Source: Acidobacteriota bacterium (lineage in GTDB: Bacteria; Acidobacteriota; Blastocatellia; Pyrinomonadales; Pyrinomonadaceae). From it: 64,000 bases of DNA. The stretch is taken from positions 1,589 to 65,588 of the forward strand of contig JANMAA010000235.1 of assembly GCA_031359215.1 (NCBI GenBank), read 5' to 3'. The first letter of the stretch is position 1. Every line of letters begins with the position of its first letter. The notes under the pieces are model-generated. The model saw only the letters and a list, made by a program, of their open reading frames with translations. It made no database searches and was not told the origin of the DNA. Below are positions 51-8,638 of this stretch, in pieces. Made by a program: the position numbers and the translations under genes.

Positions 51-833
51 ATGAAAATAATATTTAACTTGCTTGTTTTAACCGGTATTTTCAGCTTTTT
101 GACTTTTGGGGTGATTGCACAAAAGCAGGAAATTCCGAAGACTAAAAGTAAAACGCCGGTTTTGGTCGAACTTTTTACATCCTAAGGCTGTTCGAGTTGT
201 CCGCCTGCCGACCGTGTTTTAACTCAACTCGAAAAAGACCAGCCGAATGCCGACGCGGAAATTATTGCACTTGAGATGCACGTTGATTACTGGAATTATC
301 TGGGTTGGCGGGACGAGTTTTCGCTTCCGCACTTTGGCGACAGGCAGGGCGGCTATGCGAATTTTTTCGGTCTCGATTCAAATTACACACCGCAAATGGT
401 CGTTGACGGACAAAAGGAATTTGTCGGCAGTAATTACAAAAACGCGACTAATGCGATTGCCGAAGCGGTTAAAAACGAAAAGGCGGCAGTAGAAATTTTA
501 ACCGAAACGGAAGCTAAAAAAATTAATTTCAAAATAAAAAGCAACGACATCGCCAAGCACGACGAGTCTTACATTTGGCTGGTTGTAACGGAAGATAATT
601 TAACGAATAGCGTTAGCCGTGGCGAAAATGCCGGCAGAACCCTGTCGCATACATCGGTGGTTCGTGAGATGAAACTTATCGGAAATCTGCTTCCTGCCGA
701 TAAAACATTCAATATCGAAACTTTTGTCAATATGCAGCCGAATTGGAACAAGAAAAACATCAAATTCGTCGTGTTTGTGCAGGGCAAACAATCAAAAAAG
801 GTTTTCGCTTTGGATAGAACCAAGTTATCTTAA
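51..833 (+). pseudogene. DUF1223-family secreted CxxC protein gene interrupted by a single in-frame TAA
   Basis: ATG at 51 opens a signal-peptide-like N-terminus (MKIIFNLLVLTGIFSFLTFGVIAQ...) in the same frame as ORF 276..833. Codon 183-185 is TAA exactly where the downstream paralog has GAA (LFTS-E-GCSSCP). The frame is otherwise open to 833. Confidence 0.75.
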
Positions 834-873: not shown

Positions 874-1689
874 ATGAAACACGTTTTATTAATCGGACTT
901 TTAGCACTTTTTTCCGTCTTAGCAGCGTGCAGCGTGCAGTCTGATACGACGGTTGTTGACGTTCCGCAAATACAACCGAACAAGCCGAATGAGCCAACCG
1001 AGCCGGTAAATAATAAAAATAAACAGCCGGTTTTAGTCGAACTTTTTACATCCGAAGGCTGTTCGAGTTGTCCGTCCGCCGACCGTGTTTTAGCGCAACT
1101 CGATAAAGATCAGGCGAATCCGAATGCCGAGATCATTACGCTTTCCCTCCACGTCGATTATTGGGACAACATCGGTTGGAAAGACCAGTTTTCATCTTCT
1201 TTGTATAGTCAACGGCAAGCCGCCTACGGGCGCGCATTGAGGTTGGATTCAAATTACACGCCGCAGATGGTGGTTGACGGGCAAACCGAATTCGTCGGCA
1301 GTAATATGTCGAACGCCAACAAAGCGATAACGGATAATGCCAAAAACATCAAAGCTAATGTCGAATTATCCAATGCCGGAAATAATTTGAAAGTAAAAAT
1401 TTCCGATATTCCTAACCACGAAAATGCGACGGTTTTTTTGGCAATCGCCGAAGATAATTTAGCAACAAGCGTCAAAGGCGGTGAAAATTCGGGACGCAAA
1501 CTCGAACATTCGTCAGTTGCCCGCGAACTAAAATCAATCGGTGCGGTAACAGCGCAACAAAACAGTTTTACTACCGAAACGACAGTGCAGTTTCAGCCGA
1601 ATTGGAAAAAGGAAGATGTGAAACTGATTGTTTTTCTGCAAGACAATACAAGCCGGAAAATTTTGGGCGTAAATAGAATTGTGCTTTAG
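874..1689 (+). CDS. DUF1223 domain-containing lipoprotein (intact paralog)
   Basis: AGGAG at 861-865 precedes ATG 874. Lipobox-like MKHVLLIGLLALFSVLAAC. SEGCSSCP and HVDYWDNIGWKD/YTPQMVVDG motifs are typical of DUF1223. About 88% nucleotide identity to copy 1 around the CxxC patch. Confidence 0.85.
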   Translation: MKHVLLIGLLALFSVLAACSVQSDTTVVDVPQIQPNKPNEPTEPVNNKNKQPVLVELFTSEGCSSCPSADRVLAQLDKDQANPNAEIITLSLHVDYWDNIGWKDQFSSSLYSQRQAAYGRALRLDSNYTPQMVVDGQTEFVGSNMSNANKAITDNAKNIKANVELSNAGNNLKVKISDIPNHENATVFLAIAEDNLATSVKGGENSGRKLEHSSVARELKSIGAVTAQQNSFTTETTVQFQPNWKKEDVKLIVFLQDNTSRKILGVNRIVL

Positions 1690-1716
1690 AAAGATTAAAT
1701 TTTGGTTATTTTAAGG

Positions 1717-1774
1717 TAGTGCAAATATCATTAAATGAAAAATCTTTGAATTATATTTGCACTATTTTGTTTTT
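1717..1774 (+). terminator. Hairpin plus T-run downstream of the DUF1223 gene
   Basis: TAGTGCAAATAT (1717-1728) pairs with ATATTTGCACTA (1753-1764), followed by TTTTGTTTTT. Confidence 0.5.
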
Positions 1775-1977
1775 AAAATAAATTTTATTGCATTTTGAAT
1801 TATTGTGTGTGAGAATGAGTTTTCTTCCTGTTATCCATGTAATCGGGAATTTTACTTGAAAACACTCTTCAGTGCCGGACTAAGTTAGACCAATTTTAGG
1901 TCGAAATGTAAATAAAAAAAGTGTTTTTAAAAAAATATAGTCTAACTTAATTGAGTCTCGTTAATTAACTGAAGCCG

Positions 1978-2135
1978 GTGCAAATTAAAGTTTATGTGTT
2001 TTTAGCAATTTACAATTACTGAAATAGTTGATAGTTGATAGTTGATAAACGTCATCTTCAAGCCGACTATTTATCAATTATTCAATATCAAATATCAATT
2101 ATTTCAGCAGTTTTTAACCCGTTTTTAATTTGCAC
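1978..2135. repeat. About 158-bp imperfect palindrome with internal heptamer direct repeats, upstream of the PqqD/Cys-rich gene
   Basis: Outer arms GTGCAAATTAAA (1978-1989) and TTTAATTTGCAC (2124-2135). Inner arms CTGAAATAGTTGATAGTTGATAGTTGATAAA versus TTTATCAATTATTCAATATCAAATATCAATTATTTCAG. The left arm carries 3 tandem AGTTGAT units. Confidence 0.8.
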
Positions 2136-2165
2136 ACTCTTCAATTATATTGAAAATAGTGAAAG

Positions 2166-2780
2166 GTGATGAGTATTGGAACAGCGGTTTTAGTTCCGGT
2201 ATTTAACAATCCTTCCAGAAAAAAAATAAAAAACCAAAATAAACCGTTACGCCGTAAAGATGAAATTATTGTTCAAGAACTTAATGGAGAAGTTTTAATT
2301 TATGACTTAAAATCGAATAAAGCGATTTGCTTGAATGAAGTTTCTTCTTTGGTTTGGTATGCCTGTGACGGAAACCAAAGTGTTTCGGAAATCAGTCAAT
2401 CCATCGGAGAAAAACTAAACTCTCCCGCCAATGAAGATATTGTGTGGTTGGCGTTAGACCAACTTAAAAAAGAAAAGTTGATTGCTAATGATACAGAAAT
2501 TGTTTCCAAATTTGATGGAATGTCGCGCCGTGAAGTTATCAGGAAAGTCGGTTTGGGAACAATGATGGCTTTACCGATAATTACATCATTGATTGCTCCA
2601 ACTGCCGCTAATGCTCAATCTATATGTGCCGGTGCTTGTACCTGCACAATGACCGGTATGACAGTTGGGGCTGGGAATCCATGTGCGCCACCAAATACGG
2701 GCGGGTGTTCGACGGCTATTTCAGGATGTACTTGTCGCGCCAGTGATAACGGAAATAATTTTAACGGTGCTTGCAGTTAG
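2166..2780 (+). CDS. PqqD/RRE-like domain fused to an internal Tat-type signal peptide and a 54-aa 8-Cys C-terminal peptide
   Basis: Residues about 33-105 (EIIVQELNGEVLIYDLKSNKAICLNEVSSLVWYACDGNQSVSEISQSIG...LALDQLKKEKLI) match the PqqD-family pattern. M119-SRREVIRKVGLGTMMALPIITSLIAPTAANA-Q151 is a complete twin-arginine signal with an AxA site. The tail is QSICAGACTCTMTGMTVGAGNPCAPPNTGGCSTAISGCTCRASDNGNNFNGACS. Confidence 0.7.
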   Translation: MMSIGTAVLVPVFNNPSRKKIKNQNKPLRRKDEIIVQELNGEVLIYDLKSNKAICLNEVSSLVWYACDGNQSVSEISQSIGEKLNSPANEDIVWLALDQLKKEKLIANDTEIVSKFDGMSRREVIRKVGLGTMMALPIITSLIAPTAANAQSICAGACTCTMTGMTVGAGNPCAPPNTGGCSTAISGCTCRASDNGNNFNGACS

Positions 2781-2924
2781 TTTTTAATCAATAATCTAAA
2801 CGATACAAAATTTCAGATGGTCGTCTTTGTGATAAATCAATTGCATAAGATTATCGCCTGAGATAATTTAGCTGTGTTTTGCATCACCGTTTCGGTGAAA
2901 AATTTAGAAACTCCCAAGTCTTTT

Positions 2925-3926
2925 TTACAACTTTTTTTTATTCGGGAATCTAAGATGTGGAGTATTTTGTTGCGCCATTCTAACTCTTGCAAACGCAAAA
3001 ACAGGCGAATAGTTTTGCGGTTTTATTTCAGGATTTGACGGCAAACTCACTGACCAGTTTTCTTTTTTTTGTGCAAGGCTTAAATCAAATTTGATTTCGC
3101 CAACGGCAAGTTGGAAAGGCTGAAATTCATAGATCGTAGTATTCCAACTTTGTGAATCAAAAGCATCCATCTTTATTTCGTCGGTGAAAAAAGAGTGAGT
3201 AAAAGTGGCGAAAGCATTTACTTCCGATATATTATCTAATTGCCACGACAGCGAAAGATTTTGTAGACACGGATTGGATTCTACCGTTCTAAAATCAATT
3301 TTGACAAGTTCTTGCGGTTCTGCTAAAAATTTCACCCTTTGCCGTTCTGACAAAGAATAAGTTTGTGGATAATTATATGATAAAGATTTGAAAAAATCGC
3401 ATTTAATCGGTAATCCGGCGGGCAAGCCCTGAATTGAATTTTCAACCCGCACGGGAATAGCAAACATAATCATTTTTTGCGGGATCAATATTCCGTTAGA
3501 TGCCAAAAAACGATTTCTCAACTTAACAAAAGCACTCACAGTCGCTTCGCCAAAAGCATCAACACCAAAAATCTCGCTAACAATGAGGTTAAATTTGCCG
3601 CGAATTTTGAAATCGTTTGAATGGGCGTGGATAATTTCCATTTTGTTTGCGACACCGTTTTCTTGTGCGTGCCGAAACATTATTGGAATTAAACTTTCTT
3701 CAATCTCAAGCGCTACAACTCTCTTTGCTCCGAGTTTTGCCGCTAAAATTGCCCAAATGCCCGTTCCCGCACCAACATCAAGAAAGTTTGTTTCGCTAGT
3801 AATATTTTTTTTGATTGCTTCATAAAGTAATTTATTTCTAACACCATCTGCTAGCATCTTTCGGTGATAAGGTAATACACCCTGGATTTGAGTGGAAAAT
3901 TTCTCGTCGTTCGTTAGTGGCTTCAT
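2925..3926 (-). CDS. Protein arginine N-methyltransferase (PRMT)-like class I SAM methyltransferase
   Basis: HRKMLADGVRNKLLY plus LDVGAGTGIWAILAAKLGAKRVVALE (motif I). SEIFGVDAFGE has two Glu 9 residues apart (double-E loop). SQSWNTTIY sits at the THW-loop position. Length of 333 aa equals a PRMT core. Confidence 0.75.
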   Translation of the reverse strand: MKPLTNDEKFSTQIQGVLPYHRKMLADGVRNKLLYEAIKKNITSETNFLDVGAGTGIWAILAAKLGAKRVVALEIEESLIPIMFRHAQENGVANKMEIIHAHSNDFKIRGKFNLIVSEIFGVDAFGEATVSAFVKLRNRFLASNGILIPQKMIMFAIPVRVENSIQGLPAGLPIKCDFFKSLSYNYPQTYSLSERQRVKFLAEPQELVKIDFRTVESNPCLQNLSLSWQLDNISEVNAFATFTHSFFTDEIKMDAFDSQSWNTTIYEFQPFQLAVGEIKFDLSLAQKKENWSVSLPSNPEIKPQNYSPVFAFARVRMAQQNTPHLRFPNKKKL

Positions 3927-3989: not shown

Positions 3990-4235
3990 TTACCAACGCC
4001 AATCGTATTTGGAAAAATTTTCGCGCCAATTTTCTTCTGTTTCGGTTTTGAGAATGGGGATTTTCCCGTCGAAAACAATTTCCGCATCTAACAGGCGACG
4101 CAAACGGTAAGTTCTGCCCAAGGGCGAACAGACAATCAGCGTCGCTTTTTCTTCGTCAAATTTTGAGATAACCGCAACCCGCCAATCTATTTTGGAACGG
4201 ACAAGCAGACGTGCGCCGACGGGCAAATCACGCAA
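3990..4235 (-). CDS. Small Arg-rich hypothetical protein (about 81 aa; longest ORF extends to 4334)
   Basis: ORF 3990..4334 overlaps the 3' end of the upstream gene by 97 nt. A TTG at 4235 lies 2 nt after that gene's stop. No recognisable domain. Confidence 0.35.
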   Translation of the reverse strand: MRDLPVGARLLVRSKIDWRVAVISKFDEEKATLIVCSPLGRTYRLRRLLDAEIVFDGKIPILKTETEENWRENFSKYDWRW

Positions 4236-4237
4236 GG

Positions 4238-4984
4238 TTATTTGAGTTTCGGGAGTTTCCAAGATTTTTGGTAAGTTTGATAATTTGCTTCGGGCATTTG
4301 AATTAAAACCGGATTTTTTTCGGCATCGAGCCAACTCAAAAGCGTTTCTATGTTTTCACGTTTCATCGCCGTGCATCCGGCTGTGCCGCTTTTTTCGTCC
4401 TTCCAGATGTGTAGAAAAATACAAGAACCGTTGCCATTTTTAACCGGGATTAAATTATGAGCGACAAAAACGCCTAAATCGTATTGTGCGCCAACCGCCA
4501 ACATCTTTTCCGAACTGTCCCAATCGAAATTTCCGATCTTGTAGCGGTCAACAATTTGGTTATAGTTAGCGGATTTTGTATCGTCAACGCATTCGGTTGA
4601 TGATTTGAGTTCGGTAAAGGGAAGTTTGACGTAATCGGGTTTTGCATGTGATCCGAAGGCGGAAGTTAGATTAAAAATTCCGGCAGGCGATTTGCCGTCG
4701 CCTTCGCGTTTATATTTGACAGGTTTTTCAGATAATAAATAAGCAATATCTTCACTCCACGCCAGACCGTTTTTGCCGACGACAACCGGGAAAATTGTGC
4801 TGACCGCATTCCATTCGGTTTTCAAGTTTTTACGTTCAAACATTTGTGCTTTACCTTGAATCGAGTTCCAATCTTTGGTCGTTACGACAATTACCTGAAG
4901 CGATTTGGAAAATGTGGTTTTTTGCGCGCAAATATTATGGCTGAAAAAAAGAATTCCTAAAAAAAGAAAAGTAATTATCTTCAT
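4238..4984 (-). CDS. L,D-transpeptidase-family (YkuD/COG3786-like) secreted protein
   Basis: Signal peptide [22 protein letters not shown]-terminal GSCIFLHIW...TAGCTAM resembles the His...Cys catalytic motif of L,D-transpeptidase folds. Confidence 0.6.
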
Positions 4985-6599: not shown

Positions 6600-7808
6600 T
6601 TATGGTAAATACGCAATTTCAACTACATCTCCGATTTCGCAATTCTTGCCCTGCGGCACAAAAGCAAGCGCATTAGCATTGGCAAAAGCGATGAAATTTG
6701 AAGAACCGCTAAAGCGCAAAGATTCGACGATCAGTTTTCCATCTTTATCGGTTTCAAGATGAACCGGCAAAAAACTGTCGCGTTCTTTTGCACCTTTAAT
6801 TTTAGCGGATGCAACGGCATAGCCTTGTTTTAACTGACAAATCGCTGCATTTTGCATTTTTAATAAAGCGGTTCGAACGAATAAATAAAATGTTACGGCA
6901 ACCGAAACCGGATTTCCCGGCAGACCGAAAATCAATTTGTCATTAAGTTTAGCAAAAACCGTCGGCTTGCCGGGTTTTAGACTGATACTTTCAAATAGAA
7001 TCTCCGCGCCTAAATTTCGCAGAGCAGGTTTTGTAAAATCATAATCACCAACCGAAACTCCGCCCGAAATAATTAAAACATCACAACTTTCGAGCGCGTC
7101 CAGAATTTTATTTTGCAAATTTTGCAGATCATCTTTGACTATCGGTAAAACTCGAACGTCAGCATAATCTTCCACAAAAATTTTAAGCATAACGGAATTC
7201 GAGTTGCGAATCTGATCTTTTTTCGGCGTTTCATTAATCCCGACAATCTCGCTGCCTGTCGCTAGAATCGCCACCTTCGGCTTTTTGACAACCTTGATTT
7301 CGGCATAGCCGAAAGATGCCAACGTCGCAATTTTTCGTGCGGTAATAATGTCGCCTTTATCAAAAACTTTCTTGCCTTTTACAATCTCGTCGGCGCGATT
7401 GACGATGTGTTGCTTTAATTTCGTCGGCTCTAAAATCGTGATAAAACCGTCGCTTTCGCTTGTCAATTCGACTTTTTGAACTGTGTCCGCGCCATCGGGA
7501 ATTCTCGCGCCGGTCATAATTCTGACGGCTTCGCCGGTTTTGATTTTTCCGTCAAAACCTGTTCCAGCCGAACTTTCGCCGACGATTTTAAGCATTACGG
7601 GTGTGTTCTCAGTATCTTTTGTTTTTACTGCAAAACCGTCCATCTGTGAACGATTAAACGGTGGCAAATCCATATCCGCACAAACTGCTTCCGCCAAAAC
7701 TCGCCCGCACGAATCGGCTATTTCAACCTTTTCAATGGAAAGTTTGCCGACTTGTTTTTCGATAATTTTTAAGGCTTTGGAAATCGGGATCATAGATGTT
7801 ACCGACAT
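6600..7808 (-). CDS. moeA: Molybdopterin molybdenumtransferase MoeA
   Basis: MoeA signature regions (FNRSQMDGFAV, GGVSVGDYDF, LPGNPVS). ATG at 7808 (MSVTSMIPISKAL) is preferred over the GTG at 7829. Confidence 0.9.
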   Translation of the reverse strand: MSVTSMIPISKALKIIEKQVGKLSIEKVEIADSCGRVLAEAVCADMDLPPFNRSQMDGFAVKTKDTENTPVMLKIVGESSAGTGFDGKIKTGEAVRIMTGARIPDGADTVQKVELTSESDGFITILEPTKLKQHIVNRADEIVKGKKVFDKGDIITARKIATLASFGYAEIKVVKKPKVAILATGSEIVGINETPKKDQIRNSNSVMLKIFVEDYADVRVLPIVKDDLQNLQNKILDALESCDVLIISGGVSVGDYDFTKPALRNLGAEILFESISLKPGKPTVFAKLNDKLIFGLPGNPVSVAVTFYLFVRTALLKMQNAAICQLKQGYAVASAKIKGAKERDSFLPVHLETDKDGKLIVESLRFSGSSNFIAFANANALAFVPQGKNCEIGDVVEIAYLP

Positions 7809-7857
7809 TATGAACACATTTTTAAACACGAGTTGCCGAAAATATATGAAAACTGAC

Positions 7858-8046
7858 CATTCACAACCAGCAATCGAAGATTCACAGGTAATAATCGAAC
7901 ATTCACAAGTGATAATCGAACAATCACAAGTGATAATCGAAGATTCACAGCTAACTTTAATACATTCACAACTAACTTTAATACATTTACAGCTAACTTA
8001 TGAGGATTCACAACTAACTTACAACCATTCACAAGCAATGTTCTTG
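7858..8046. repeat. Nine contiguous 21-bp direct repeats (core ATTCACA)
   Basis: Units start at 7858, 7879, 7900, 7921, 7942, 7963, 7984, 8005 and 8026, for example CATTCACAAGTGATAATCGAA and GATTCACAGCTAACTTTAATA. No spacers. The first base follows a GAT/CAT/CAW pattern, giving a 63-bp super-period. Confidence 0.9.
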
Positions 8047-8065: not shown

Positions 8066-8638
8066 TTAATTACTTACTTTTTCCGCGTCATATCTTTTCA
8101 AAATTGAAGAAACATAAGCCTTTGTCGAAGCAATATCAATGCGTTCGATAAATTGTTCTCTCGTGAGCTTTGCGGCATCAGTGTTTTTTGTCCATTCTTC
8201 GACACGGCTGGCACCGGCGTTATATGCCGCTAAAGTCATTGCTTCTTCCGCCGTGTCGCCGCGATAGTTTTCCCGTAATTTTTCCAGATACCAACAGCCG
8301 ACTTGGATATTTCTCTCCGGGTCGCGCAAAAAATCCACTAAATTTTCGGCGGTTTGTTTTTCAAATTCCCGAAAACCCGTTTCTTTCGCCCATTCACGCG
8401 CCACCGTCGGCGTAACCTGCATCAAACCGACTTCTTCCGCCGCACCGATTTGCCATGTGCGAAAGTAAGTTTCTTCGTAAATTATGCTCCAGACTAATTT
8501 TTTATCCAATTTATAAACACCAGCCTGACGCGCTATCAATTCGTCGAACCGGTGAATCCAATAATTGTTAAAAAAATACAGCCCGCTCAACGAAAGAAAA
8601 GCAAAAATTATCAGGCTGAAATATAAATAACGGCGCAT
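8066..8638 (-). CDS. Lytic transglycosylase (SLT domain), membrane-anchored
   Basis: N-terminal TM segment. Contains EEVGLMQVTP (catalytic Glu context) and AAYNAG motifs. Confidence 0.8.
   Translation of the reverse strand: MRRYLYFSLIIFAFLSLSGLYFFNNYWIHRFDELIARQAGVYKLDKKLVWSIIYEETYFRTWQIGAAEEVGLMQVTPTVAREWAKETGFREFEKQTAENLVDFLRDPERNIQVGCWYLEKLRENYRGDTAEEAMTLAAYNAGASRVEEWTKNTDAAKLTREQFIERIDIASTKAYVSSILKRYDAEKVSN

Follow-up and report, generated by a model that had tools for sequence, protein, structure and literature searches.

A family of acidobacterial PqqD-type proteins with an internal twin-arginine signal-like segment and a cysteine-rich tail: candidate precursors of exported peptides

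Analysis of a 64,000-nucleotide stretch of contig JANMAA010000235.1 from an Acidobacteriota bacterium (the window, compared below with loci numbered L001 onwards) indicated that the open reading frame (ORF) at 2166..2780 on the plus strand, open over 204 codons plus a stop, encodes three parts on one polypeptide: a PqqD-type domain of the kind used as a recognition element (RRE) for peptides made by ribosomes and modified after translation (RiPPs), a twin-arginine signal-like segment and a Cys-rich tail. An earlier note, made from the letters of this DNA, had described such an architecture with a tail of 54 aa and 8 Cys, and it proved to be real and conserved in a family. We read the gene as encoding a self-contained RiPP-like precursor of an exported peptide, a reading to which we give about even credence. 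As far as the sequences tell, the family is large, undescribed, from soil Acidobacteria, and most likely makes a modified secreted peptide. A fusion artefact or frameshift was ruled out, since all 93 family genes of the fetched loci share the architecture, as do the top 150 representatives of the profile search given below.

The RRE/PqqD-type winged-helix domain comprises residues 34-102 (2265..2471, plus strand), as delimited by Pfam, AlphaFold2, Foldseek and isoelectric point (pI). The PqqD pattern noticed earlier held in the hidden Markov model (HMM) check, where PF05402 (PqqD) matched residues 42-106 over model positions 1-67 of 67 with 27.4 bits against a gathering cut-off of 23.4 (E 4.4e-6), and AlphaFold2 and Foldseek agreed; NCBIfam gave weak matches to PqqD-type chaperones (ScmD, lasso PqqD and PQQ PqqD). 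The AlphaFold2 model, built on 93 homologs with a mean predicted local distance difference test score (pLDDT) of 66, has a beta3-alpha3 layout with strands at 34-39, 42-47 and 52-56 and helices at 58-66, 73-84 and 90-102, the pLDDT being 70-80 over residues 34-102. The top Foldseek match in the PDB was TbiB1 with its leader (5v1u/5v1v; E 1.5e-4, target TM-score 0.72-0.77), and lasso B1 protein 6jx3, sactipeptide synthase entry 5why and PqqD were further top matches. As modelled, the N-terminal domain has the RRE/PqqD fold and is like the RREs of lasso peptides. The signal segment ranks with the most conserved parts of the protein, and so do strand beta3 and helix alpha3, which usually form the peptide groove of an RRE; the RRE domain is acidic, with a pI of 4.3, and the n-region of the signal carries a net charge of +3. 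A DNA-binding winged helix of the ToxR/CadC-like regulator type is unlikely because the domain is acidic.

A poorly conserved linker, residues 103-115 (2472..2510; mean pairwise identity 0.31 over residues 106-115), separates this domain from the twin-arginine signal-like segment (2511..2615), which was delimited by conservation and consists of an n-region FxG-M-SRREVIRK, an h-region VGLGTMMALPIITSLIAP and a c-region TAANA that contains the AxA site. Met119 is followed by SRREVIRKVGLGTMMALPIITSLIAPTAANA with the predicted AxA cut at its end and QS next, so that residues 119-150 read MSRREVIRKVGLGTMMALPIITSLIAPTAANA; SRREVIRK is followed in the window protein by 22 uncharged residues. The codons of the twin arginines (R121 and R122) lie at 2526..2531. 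Alignment of 208 close homologs revealed that RR is present in all 208 and the preceding S/T in 196, that the motif continues as [ED]-V-I-[KR]-K, and that G129, A135, P137 (207/208), A144 and P145 (206/208) are near-invariant. Every complete family sequence examined has the RR, the sole exception (L009, 95-310) being a fragment that begins 95 nt from a contig end, downstream of the motif. Of the window's open frames of 100 aa or more, each compared with a Tat-type rule (motif plus uncharged hydrophobic run), ORF 2166..2780 alone gave a match, with this segment.

Residues A148-N149-A150 (2607..2615) are the predicted signal peptidase I site, with the predicted cut between 2615 and 2616, based on the pattern at positions -3, -1 and -6. 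In the family position -3 is A, V or I, a Pro stands at -6, and Ala occupies -1 in 188 of the 208 homologs and in 136 of 147 representatives clustered at 50% identity (~90%). Sequence conservation collapses just after the AxA site, in the 208 homologs and in the representatives. Assignment of the segment to the twin-arginine translocation (Tat) pathway is most likely, on the motif and its conservation and not on a profile match. Tat is favoured because the RR and usually the preceding S/T are conserved, because the h-region has only moderate hydrophobicity and much Gly, Thr, Ser and Pro, because a folded domain sits upstream, and because decorated cargo would need Tat and not Sec. The earlier description of a textbook Tat signal stood for the SRR motif, the h-region, the AxA site and the conservation; it did not stand for the position or the profile scores, which are taken up below.

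The predicted mature peptide (2616..2777, residues 151-204), defined by Cys parity and by Ser/Thr at +1..+3, has 8 Cys in 54 residues, a mass of ~5.1 kDa, one acidic and one basic residue, and an AlphaFold2 pLDDT of 63-83. A Ser or Thr occurs at +1..+3 after the AxA in 146 of the 147 representatives; by the family alignment the window has Ser152 (2619..2621) in this place adjoining the cleavage site. The tails of the representatives are 25-120 residues long and rich in C, G, T, A, N and S, with charged and aromatic residues nearly absent. An even number of Cys, mostly 6, 8, 10, 12 or 14, was counted in 197 of the family's 199 unique tails and likewise in 140 of the 147 representatives. The even counts point to disulfides and therefore, as judged from sequence, to a tail that would be disulfide-bonded and extracytoplasmic. 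Duplications of an 8-Cys module were seen in some tails, those of P0129, P0142 and P0149 being tandem duplications of the whole Cys module, and so the tail appears to behave as a modular disulfide-rich unit.

Mean pairwise identities over 93 sequences were 0.69 for the RRE, 0.31 for the linker, 0.68 for the signal-like segment and 0.26 for the tail. By these alignments, a conserved RRE and signal followed by a hypervariable tail is the leader/core pattern of ribosomal peptide precursors. Between the window gene and its 90%-identical ortholog in L004, dN/dS is 0.25 over the whole ORF, 0.17 in the signal and 0.31 in the tail, and none of the 8 Cys is lost; the tail is under purifying selection despite its variability. 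The near-universal start Met of the homologs aligns, at the protein level, with window codon 21, which is ATA (2226..2228), and the DNA alignment showed that the L004 ortholog keeps GGAG...ATG at this place. A GTG at 2166 and an ATG at 2169 lie in frame upstream, and use of either adds 20 residues absent from most homologs. The N-terminus used by the window gene is uncertain, GTG 2166 or ATG 2169 being possible.

A word-indexed search with the window protein returned 528 homologs at E<=0.01, the best 120 all below 1e-52. An exhaustive HMM search of 1.84 billion representatives (50%-identity clusters) returned 7,718 at E<=1e-3, 4,606 at E<=1e-10 and 1,182 at E<=1e-30, and the top 150 align through the signal segment. 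Among species-representative genomes, 300 loci with a relative were found and the best 80 of the 300 were read; nearly all of these 80 are labelled as Pyrinomonadaceae, Pyrinomonadales or unclassified Acidobacteriota metagenome-assembled genomes (MAGs), while the remaining labels are a few Blastocatellia or "Chloracidobacterium" and one that says "bacterium" only. Pyrinomonadaceae and related Acidobacteriota are common in soils and have very little known secondary metabolism. Multiple copies per genome are common, some of them in tandem, and one MAG has at least 6 copies in four loci. The sole name given to the family in the source databases is "PqqD family protein". The earlier note had known of no described family with this architecture, and indeed no description of an RRE joined to a twin-arginine signal and a Cys-rich tail was found in the searchable literature; literature searches on the HPr-rel-A system and on Pyrinomonadaceae RiPPs likewise gave no description of the family.

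Gene neighbourhoods were compared after ORFs had been called and clustered in 84 loci, namely 83 fetched loci and the first 13 kb of the window. This survey of homologs for co-occurring enzymes, which had been suggested earlier, showed an HprK-related kinase within 3 kb of the family gene in 57 of the 84 loci and an NTP_transf_5 nucleotidyltransferase directly downstream of the family gene in 40 loci, inside a glycan locus; the window copy has neither. The kinase is found in two independent arrangements, co-directional upstream and convergent downstream of the family gene. Because the adjacency recurs in two different arrangements, it argues for a functional pair of kinase and family gene. In the kinase-linked setting (46 family genes) the order is a WecB-like epimerase, two GT4 glycosyltransferases, a WecA-like Glycos_transf_4 protein, a protein of ~280 aa, the family gene, a protein of ~290 aa, TsaB and RimI, and independent gene calls on a 5.4-Mb contig gave the same order. 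The tails of these copies are ~32 residues long with 6 Cys, most start with A-x-S-C, and most of the copies have Ser at +3. The intergenic gaps of the cassette are mostly below ~100 nt and therefore leave no room for a separate precursor gene.

The ~280-aa protein is the HprK-related kinase: TIGR04352 was matched by all 32 that were tested (best E 2.4e-20), TIGR04355 by 20 and bona fide HPr kinase by 2, each time under the equivalog cut-offs. The HprK-related assignment rests on these NCBIfam matches; in the PDB no relevant entry was found from a single sequence, and HPr kinase 1ko7 was reached with a profile only at E 1.5. A search for distant relatives of the kinase, meant to lead to canonical HPr-rel-A loci, returned close Pyrinomonadaceae relatives only. 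The ~290-aa protein matches Pfam NTP_transf_5 (PF14907; E 1e-17). No MNIO, radical SAM, YcaO or lanthionine enzyme was found among the conserved neighbours. A signal peptidase as a conserved neighbour was rejected, Peptidase_S26 being near the cassette in L084 only, with no homolog in the other loci or in the window. A gene for a protein of 414-472 aa (~415 aa) without Pfam match was observed directly downstream of family paralogs outside the kinase-linked cassette, reading in the same direction (L008:2340-3605, L014:10512-11930, L026:1380-2630, L032:1761-3020 and L037:2694-3938); by its position it could be another tailoring enzyme. Other family paralogs adjoin CadC-like regulators.

The window belongs to a second setting, in which one or two DUF1223 genes and the family gene are followed on the opposite strand by a gene for a PRMT-like (protein arginine methyltransferase-like) protein, by a second HprK-related paralog or by both, and then by a small conserved protein, a YkuD transpeptidase, Peptidase_M50B, MoaC and MoeA. 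The window, L004, L007 and L013 have only the methyltransferase at the kinase site. Where a MAG has a window-type locus, a kinase-linked one is usually present too: L004, the closest ortholog of the window gene, is from the same MAG as L039, and L006 goes with L071. Modification in trans is therefore conceivable, and the window copy would then be served by enzymes encoded elsewhere in its genome.

The PRMT-like gene of the window (2925..3926, minus strand) is convergent with the ORF and has Pfam methyltransferase matches; its best PDB match is T. brucei PRMT7 (E 1.1e-25), making it a bacterial homolog of eukaryotic PRMTs. Besides the window, 6 fetched loci have such a gene beside the family gene, in most cases as a variable insertion right after it; the enzyme is a possible tailoring enzyme for the family peptide. 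The invariant twin arginines are an obvious candidate substrate of the PRMT-like enzyme.

Upstream on the plus strand, 874..1689 encodes a DUF1223 thioredoxin-like protein (PF06764, E 5.6e-60) with a CSSC motif and a likely lipoprotein signal. DUF1223 genes occur in 14 fetched loci and stand directly upstream of the family gene in most of them. The protein is a weak candidate for a disulfide oxidoreductase acting on the tail, and its position could equally be inherited synteny. A second DUF1223 copy (51..833, plus strand) contains an in-frame TAA at 183-185, which falls at the Glu of ELFTSEGCSSCP in the paralog at 874..1689; either one nonsense mutation has turned this copy into a pseudogene, or the stop is a sequencing error. 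Selenocysteine was ruled out for it, since the stop is TAA and replaces Glu and not Cys.

The export route, cleavage, modifications and RRE role that we infer for the family would be as follows. The RRE, built into the precursor, would remain in the cytoplasm, where tailoring enzymes would dock on it and where it might also hold the protein's own signal segment. The adjacent HprK-related kinase and NTP_transf_5 would phosphorylate and then decorate the conserved Ser/Thr just after the cut, by analogy with paeninodin and with the linear polyphosphorylated peptides (LPP). The twin-arginine segment would direct post-translational export, most likely by Tat, which would give time for modification in the cytoplasm and tolerate decorated cargo. 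Signal peptidase I would cleave after the AxA, and the hypervariable peptide, of 54 aa in the window, would be released outside the cytoplasm, where 3-4 disulfides would form; in window-type loci DUF1223 could assist the oxidation of the tail. The window copy, a dispersed paralog without its own kinase, might be modified in trans, be modified by its PRMT-like neighbour, or be exported unmodified. More tentatively, and as a proposal that we hold rather doubtful in its full extent, the family would constitute a new class of ribosomal peptides whose precursor brings its own cis-RRE and twin-arginine leader, on which the kinase, NTP_transf_5 and in some loci the PRMT-like enzyme or the 415-aa protein dock to decorate the junction Ser/Thr before Tat export and release by signal peptidase I, the outcome being thousands of hypervariable disulfide-rich phospho- or glyco-peptides from Acidobacteria that abound in soil.

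Several observations weigh against the reading as an exported RiPP-like precursor. The window copy is without the partner enzymes, which are the most telling part of the family's context: no kinase or nucleotidyltransferase homolog was found within the 64-kb window, and its codon at the usual start of the family is ATA. None of the conserved neighbour clusters is a dedicated peptidase or exporter. With the NCBIfam models of the HPr-rel-A system, both kinase and RRE stay under the cut-offs. The twin-arginine signal is internal and not N-terminal, the RR being at residues 121-122 of 204, or ~101-102 residues from the usual start, behind a folded domain. With TIGR01409 a segment like the family consensus reached 12.5 bits against a cut-off of 16.7 and the window's own segment gave no match; Pfam TAT_signal (PF10518) gave no match either, and formate_TAT matched at E 0.0036-0.09, under its cut-off. 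The fetched DNA contained no Tat genes or TatA homologs, a sample that is small and uninformative. Finally, AlphaFold2 shows no docking of the signal on the RRE, residues 131-151 being disordered, without a strand and with pLDDT below 50.

A bitopic membrane protein is a less likely but plausible rival, in which the segment would be an uncleaved type II signal-anchor and RR/KK would serve solely as its positive-inside determinants. The cytoplasmic RRE would then bind the kinase, the nucleotidyltransferase or another peptide, and the disulfide-rich domain would be displayed outside as a sensor, receptor or scaffold of the glycan machinery. The hydrophobic region of ~18 uncharged residues with a mean Kyte-Doolittle value of ~1.7 (hand calculation) is enough for a membrane span; the identity of the segment and its invariant G129, A135, P137 and P145 are far above those of ordinary signal peptides and suit a helix with specific partners; the kinase-linked copy lies in an operon with a WecA-like membrane glycosyltransferase, and the even Cys counts fit equally. 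However, the strict AxA, the Pro at -6 and the abrupt loss of conservation are what is expected of signal peptidase cleavage and are not needed by an anchor, and hypervariable, duplicating tails with many dispersed paralogs per genome resemble secreted peptides and not a subunit of a machinery.

A built-in Tat proofreading chaperone is distinctly less probable. TorD, DmsD and NapD bind Tat signals, and by this account the acidic RRE would bind its own basic twin-arginine segment and delay export until the tail is folded, metal-loaded or modified; the protein would not have to be a RiPP precursor as commonly understood. The opposite charges of the RRE and the n-region noted above make the two electrostatically complementary, the beta3/alpha3 groove and the signal segment are both highly conserved, and [IV]-A-L-P-x-[IV] in the h-region resembles the [Y/W]xxPx[L/V/I] leader motif of lasso-type RREs. 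Yet the aromatic residue that defines the lasso/LPP leader motif is absent and, as said, the model docks no segment; the account also overlaps with that of a RiPP-like precursor and is not exclusive of it.

It is improbable that the window copy is a decaying paralog that has lost its start codon and partner kinase while the family as such is functional. The ATA at the usual start, the lack of an HprK-related gene where many orthologous loci carry one, and the nonsense codon in the neighbouring DUF1223 copy would agree with decay. On the contrary, the frame is open over 204 codons with GTG and ATG in frame upstream, the dN/dS against L004 is low (0.25) with all Cys and all signal residues intact, and L004, L007 and L013 likewise have no kinase at the site, yet the ATG of L004 is intact.

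Two products, that is the full-length protein and a Tat pre-peptide from the internal ATG 2520, where Met119 directly before SRR would yield a textbook N-terminal Tat signal, can be dismissed as very improbable, with residue 119 being M in only 94 of the 208 homologs (L 57, Q 19, V 11, I 11) and in 25 of the 147 representatives, mostly Q, T or R in kinase-linked paralogs, no clear ribosome-binding site upstream of 2520 on reading of the sequence, and no standalone signal-plus-tail gene found; internal initiation was ruled out as the Met is not conserved. Nor did the idea hold that a separate Tat pre-peptide gene had been fused behind a PqqD gene: none of the 6,104 ORFs called in the loci is a standalone signal-plus-tail gene, and of the five proteins that were retrieved with residues 114-204 as the query, three were N-terminally truncated fragments at contig ends and two were full-length fusions with short tails. 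Among the three readings that the earlier note had offered (a self-recognising RiPP-like precursor, dual products and a bitopic membrane protein), the first is thus the best supported, by the leader/core conservation, the flanking kinase and NTP_transf_5, and the lack of room for a separate precursor.

Further features of the window were recorded around the gene. The 476-bp AT-rich region upstream of it contains two arrays of 7-bp tandem repeats 25 nt apart (2024..2102), ATAGTTG x3.4 (2024..2047) and then TATCAA(A) x4.4 (2072..2102), the latter being the reverse complement of TTGATA. The repeats are not conserved in the L004 ortholog; they may form an operator, and that they belong to the family gene is uncertain. 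A promoter and terminator scan of 1600-3000 gave nothing above shuffled expectation. On the minus strand, 3990..4334 and its homologs in 17 loci encode a small conserved protein of ~90 aa without Pfam match, next after the kinase or methyltransferase gene; in the window its longest ORF runs into the YkuD gene, and the real start is therefore probably later. Approximately eight copies of a 21-bp tandem repeat (7858..8034) lie between moeA (6600..7829) and the gene at 8066..8638 and give a repetitive open frame on both strands.

RREs are commonly viewed as enzyme adapters or small free proteins. If the reading as an exported RiPP-like precursor is true, an RRE fused to its substrate with an export signal in between would be a new coupling of recognition, modification and secretion, and nature would provide an example of a twin-arginine signal that is internal, conserved in sequence and preceded by a folded cytoplasmic domain. 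It would also offer a concrete candidate substrate for the pair of HprK-related kinase and NTP_transf_5, whose final products are unknown even in LPP and paeninodin. Under the more tentative proposal of a new peptide class, the fusion would also indicate what kind of substrate, long missing, belongs to the HPr-rel-A kinase/PqqD cassettes. In scale, the family amounts to the 1,182 clusters found at E<=1e-30, annotated so far merely as "PqqD family protein".

Among known systems, the HPr-rel-A system pairs HprK-related kinase A (TIGR04352) with a PqqD family peptide chaperone (TIGR04353), and the pairing of kinase and PqqD is common to it and to the family. A nucleotidyltransferase is a further part of the HPr-rel-A system, whose genes are located near exopolysaccharide loci. 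The member of the family kinases shown for comparison reached 48.7 bits against an equivalog cut-off of 200 for TIGR04352, and with TIGR04353 the L048 protein reached 16.2 bits against a cut-off of 35 while the window protein gave no match; the latter model has 74 positions only and is thus without signal or tail. On these scores the family appears to be related to, but not a member of, the HPr-rel-A system, on which no publication was found in the searchable literature.

By analogy, the HprK-related kinase and NTP_transf_5 are the tailoring set of the paeninodin lasso peptides and of LPP. The LPP clusters of Bacillota lie within capsular polysaccharide loci, and their precursors of 35-200 aa are conserved in the N-terminal part and vary in the C-terminal part (Popov et al. 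2026, PMC13381572). In these clusters the kinase polyphosphorylates core Ser3 and the RRE presents the cleavage site to the peptidase (PMC13381572). The acidobacterial family is like LPP and paeninodin in its lasso-type RRE, its HprK-like kinase, an uncharacterised NTP transferase (PF14907 in the family), its location in polysaccharide loci, a precursor with a conserved N-terminal and a variable C-terminal part, a leader-removal site of signal-peptidase-I type, and a Ser within three residues of the cut. In contrast, the RRE of LPP and paeninodin is discrete while that of the family is fused to the candidate core or precursor, and their leaders carry YxxP/WxxP while that of the family is twin-arginine signal-like and without this motif, the nearest being [IV]ALPx[IV]. 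LPP has a dedicated signal-peptidase-I-like (SpI-like) peptidase and an MsbA-like exporter, and paeninodin a B2 protease and a lasso cyclase, none of which is conserved next to the family. The core of the family is Cys-rich with even counts, its phylum is Acidobacteriota, and the window copy, unlike LPP and paeninodin, has neither kinase nor transferase.

Compared with known Tat signals, S-R-R-x-V-I-K of the family fits S/T-R-R-x-F-L-K, and the moderately hydrophobic uncharged region and the AxA c-region also fit; the segment differs in being internal, ~100 residues in, in being conserved like a folded domain and in staying under the profile thresholds. The Tat chaperones TorD, DmsD and NapD share with the family a peptide-binding domain next to a Tat signal; unlike TorD and NapD, the family has its chaperone-like domain in cis and with an RRE fold. 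Precursors with protein-sized leaders or signal peptides are known among RiPPs, namely the NHLP/Nif11 proteusins, the borosins, whose core is fused to a methyltransferase, and the bufferins with a Sec signal and a Cys-rich core. All share with the family a large structured N-terminal part and a short variable core, and the bufferins in particular an export signal and a Cys-rich core in one precursor; DUF2282 precursors with Sec signals have been described (PMC12710340). The domain fused in the family is a recognition element and neither an enzyme nor of nitrile-hydratase-like fold, unlike that of borosins and proteusins, and its signal is Tat-like and stands between domain and core. We rate the family as a combination of known kinds, a RiPP-like precursor, HprK/NTP-transferase tailoring and Tat-type export, and not as categorically new.

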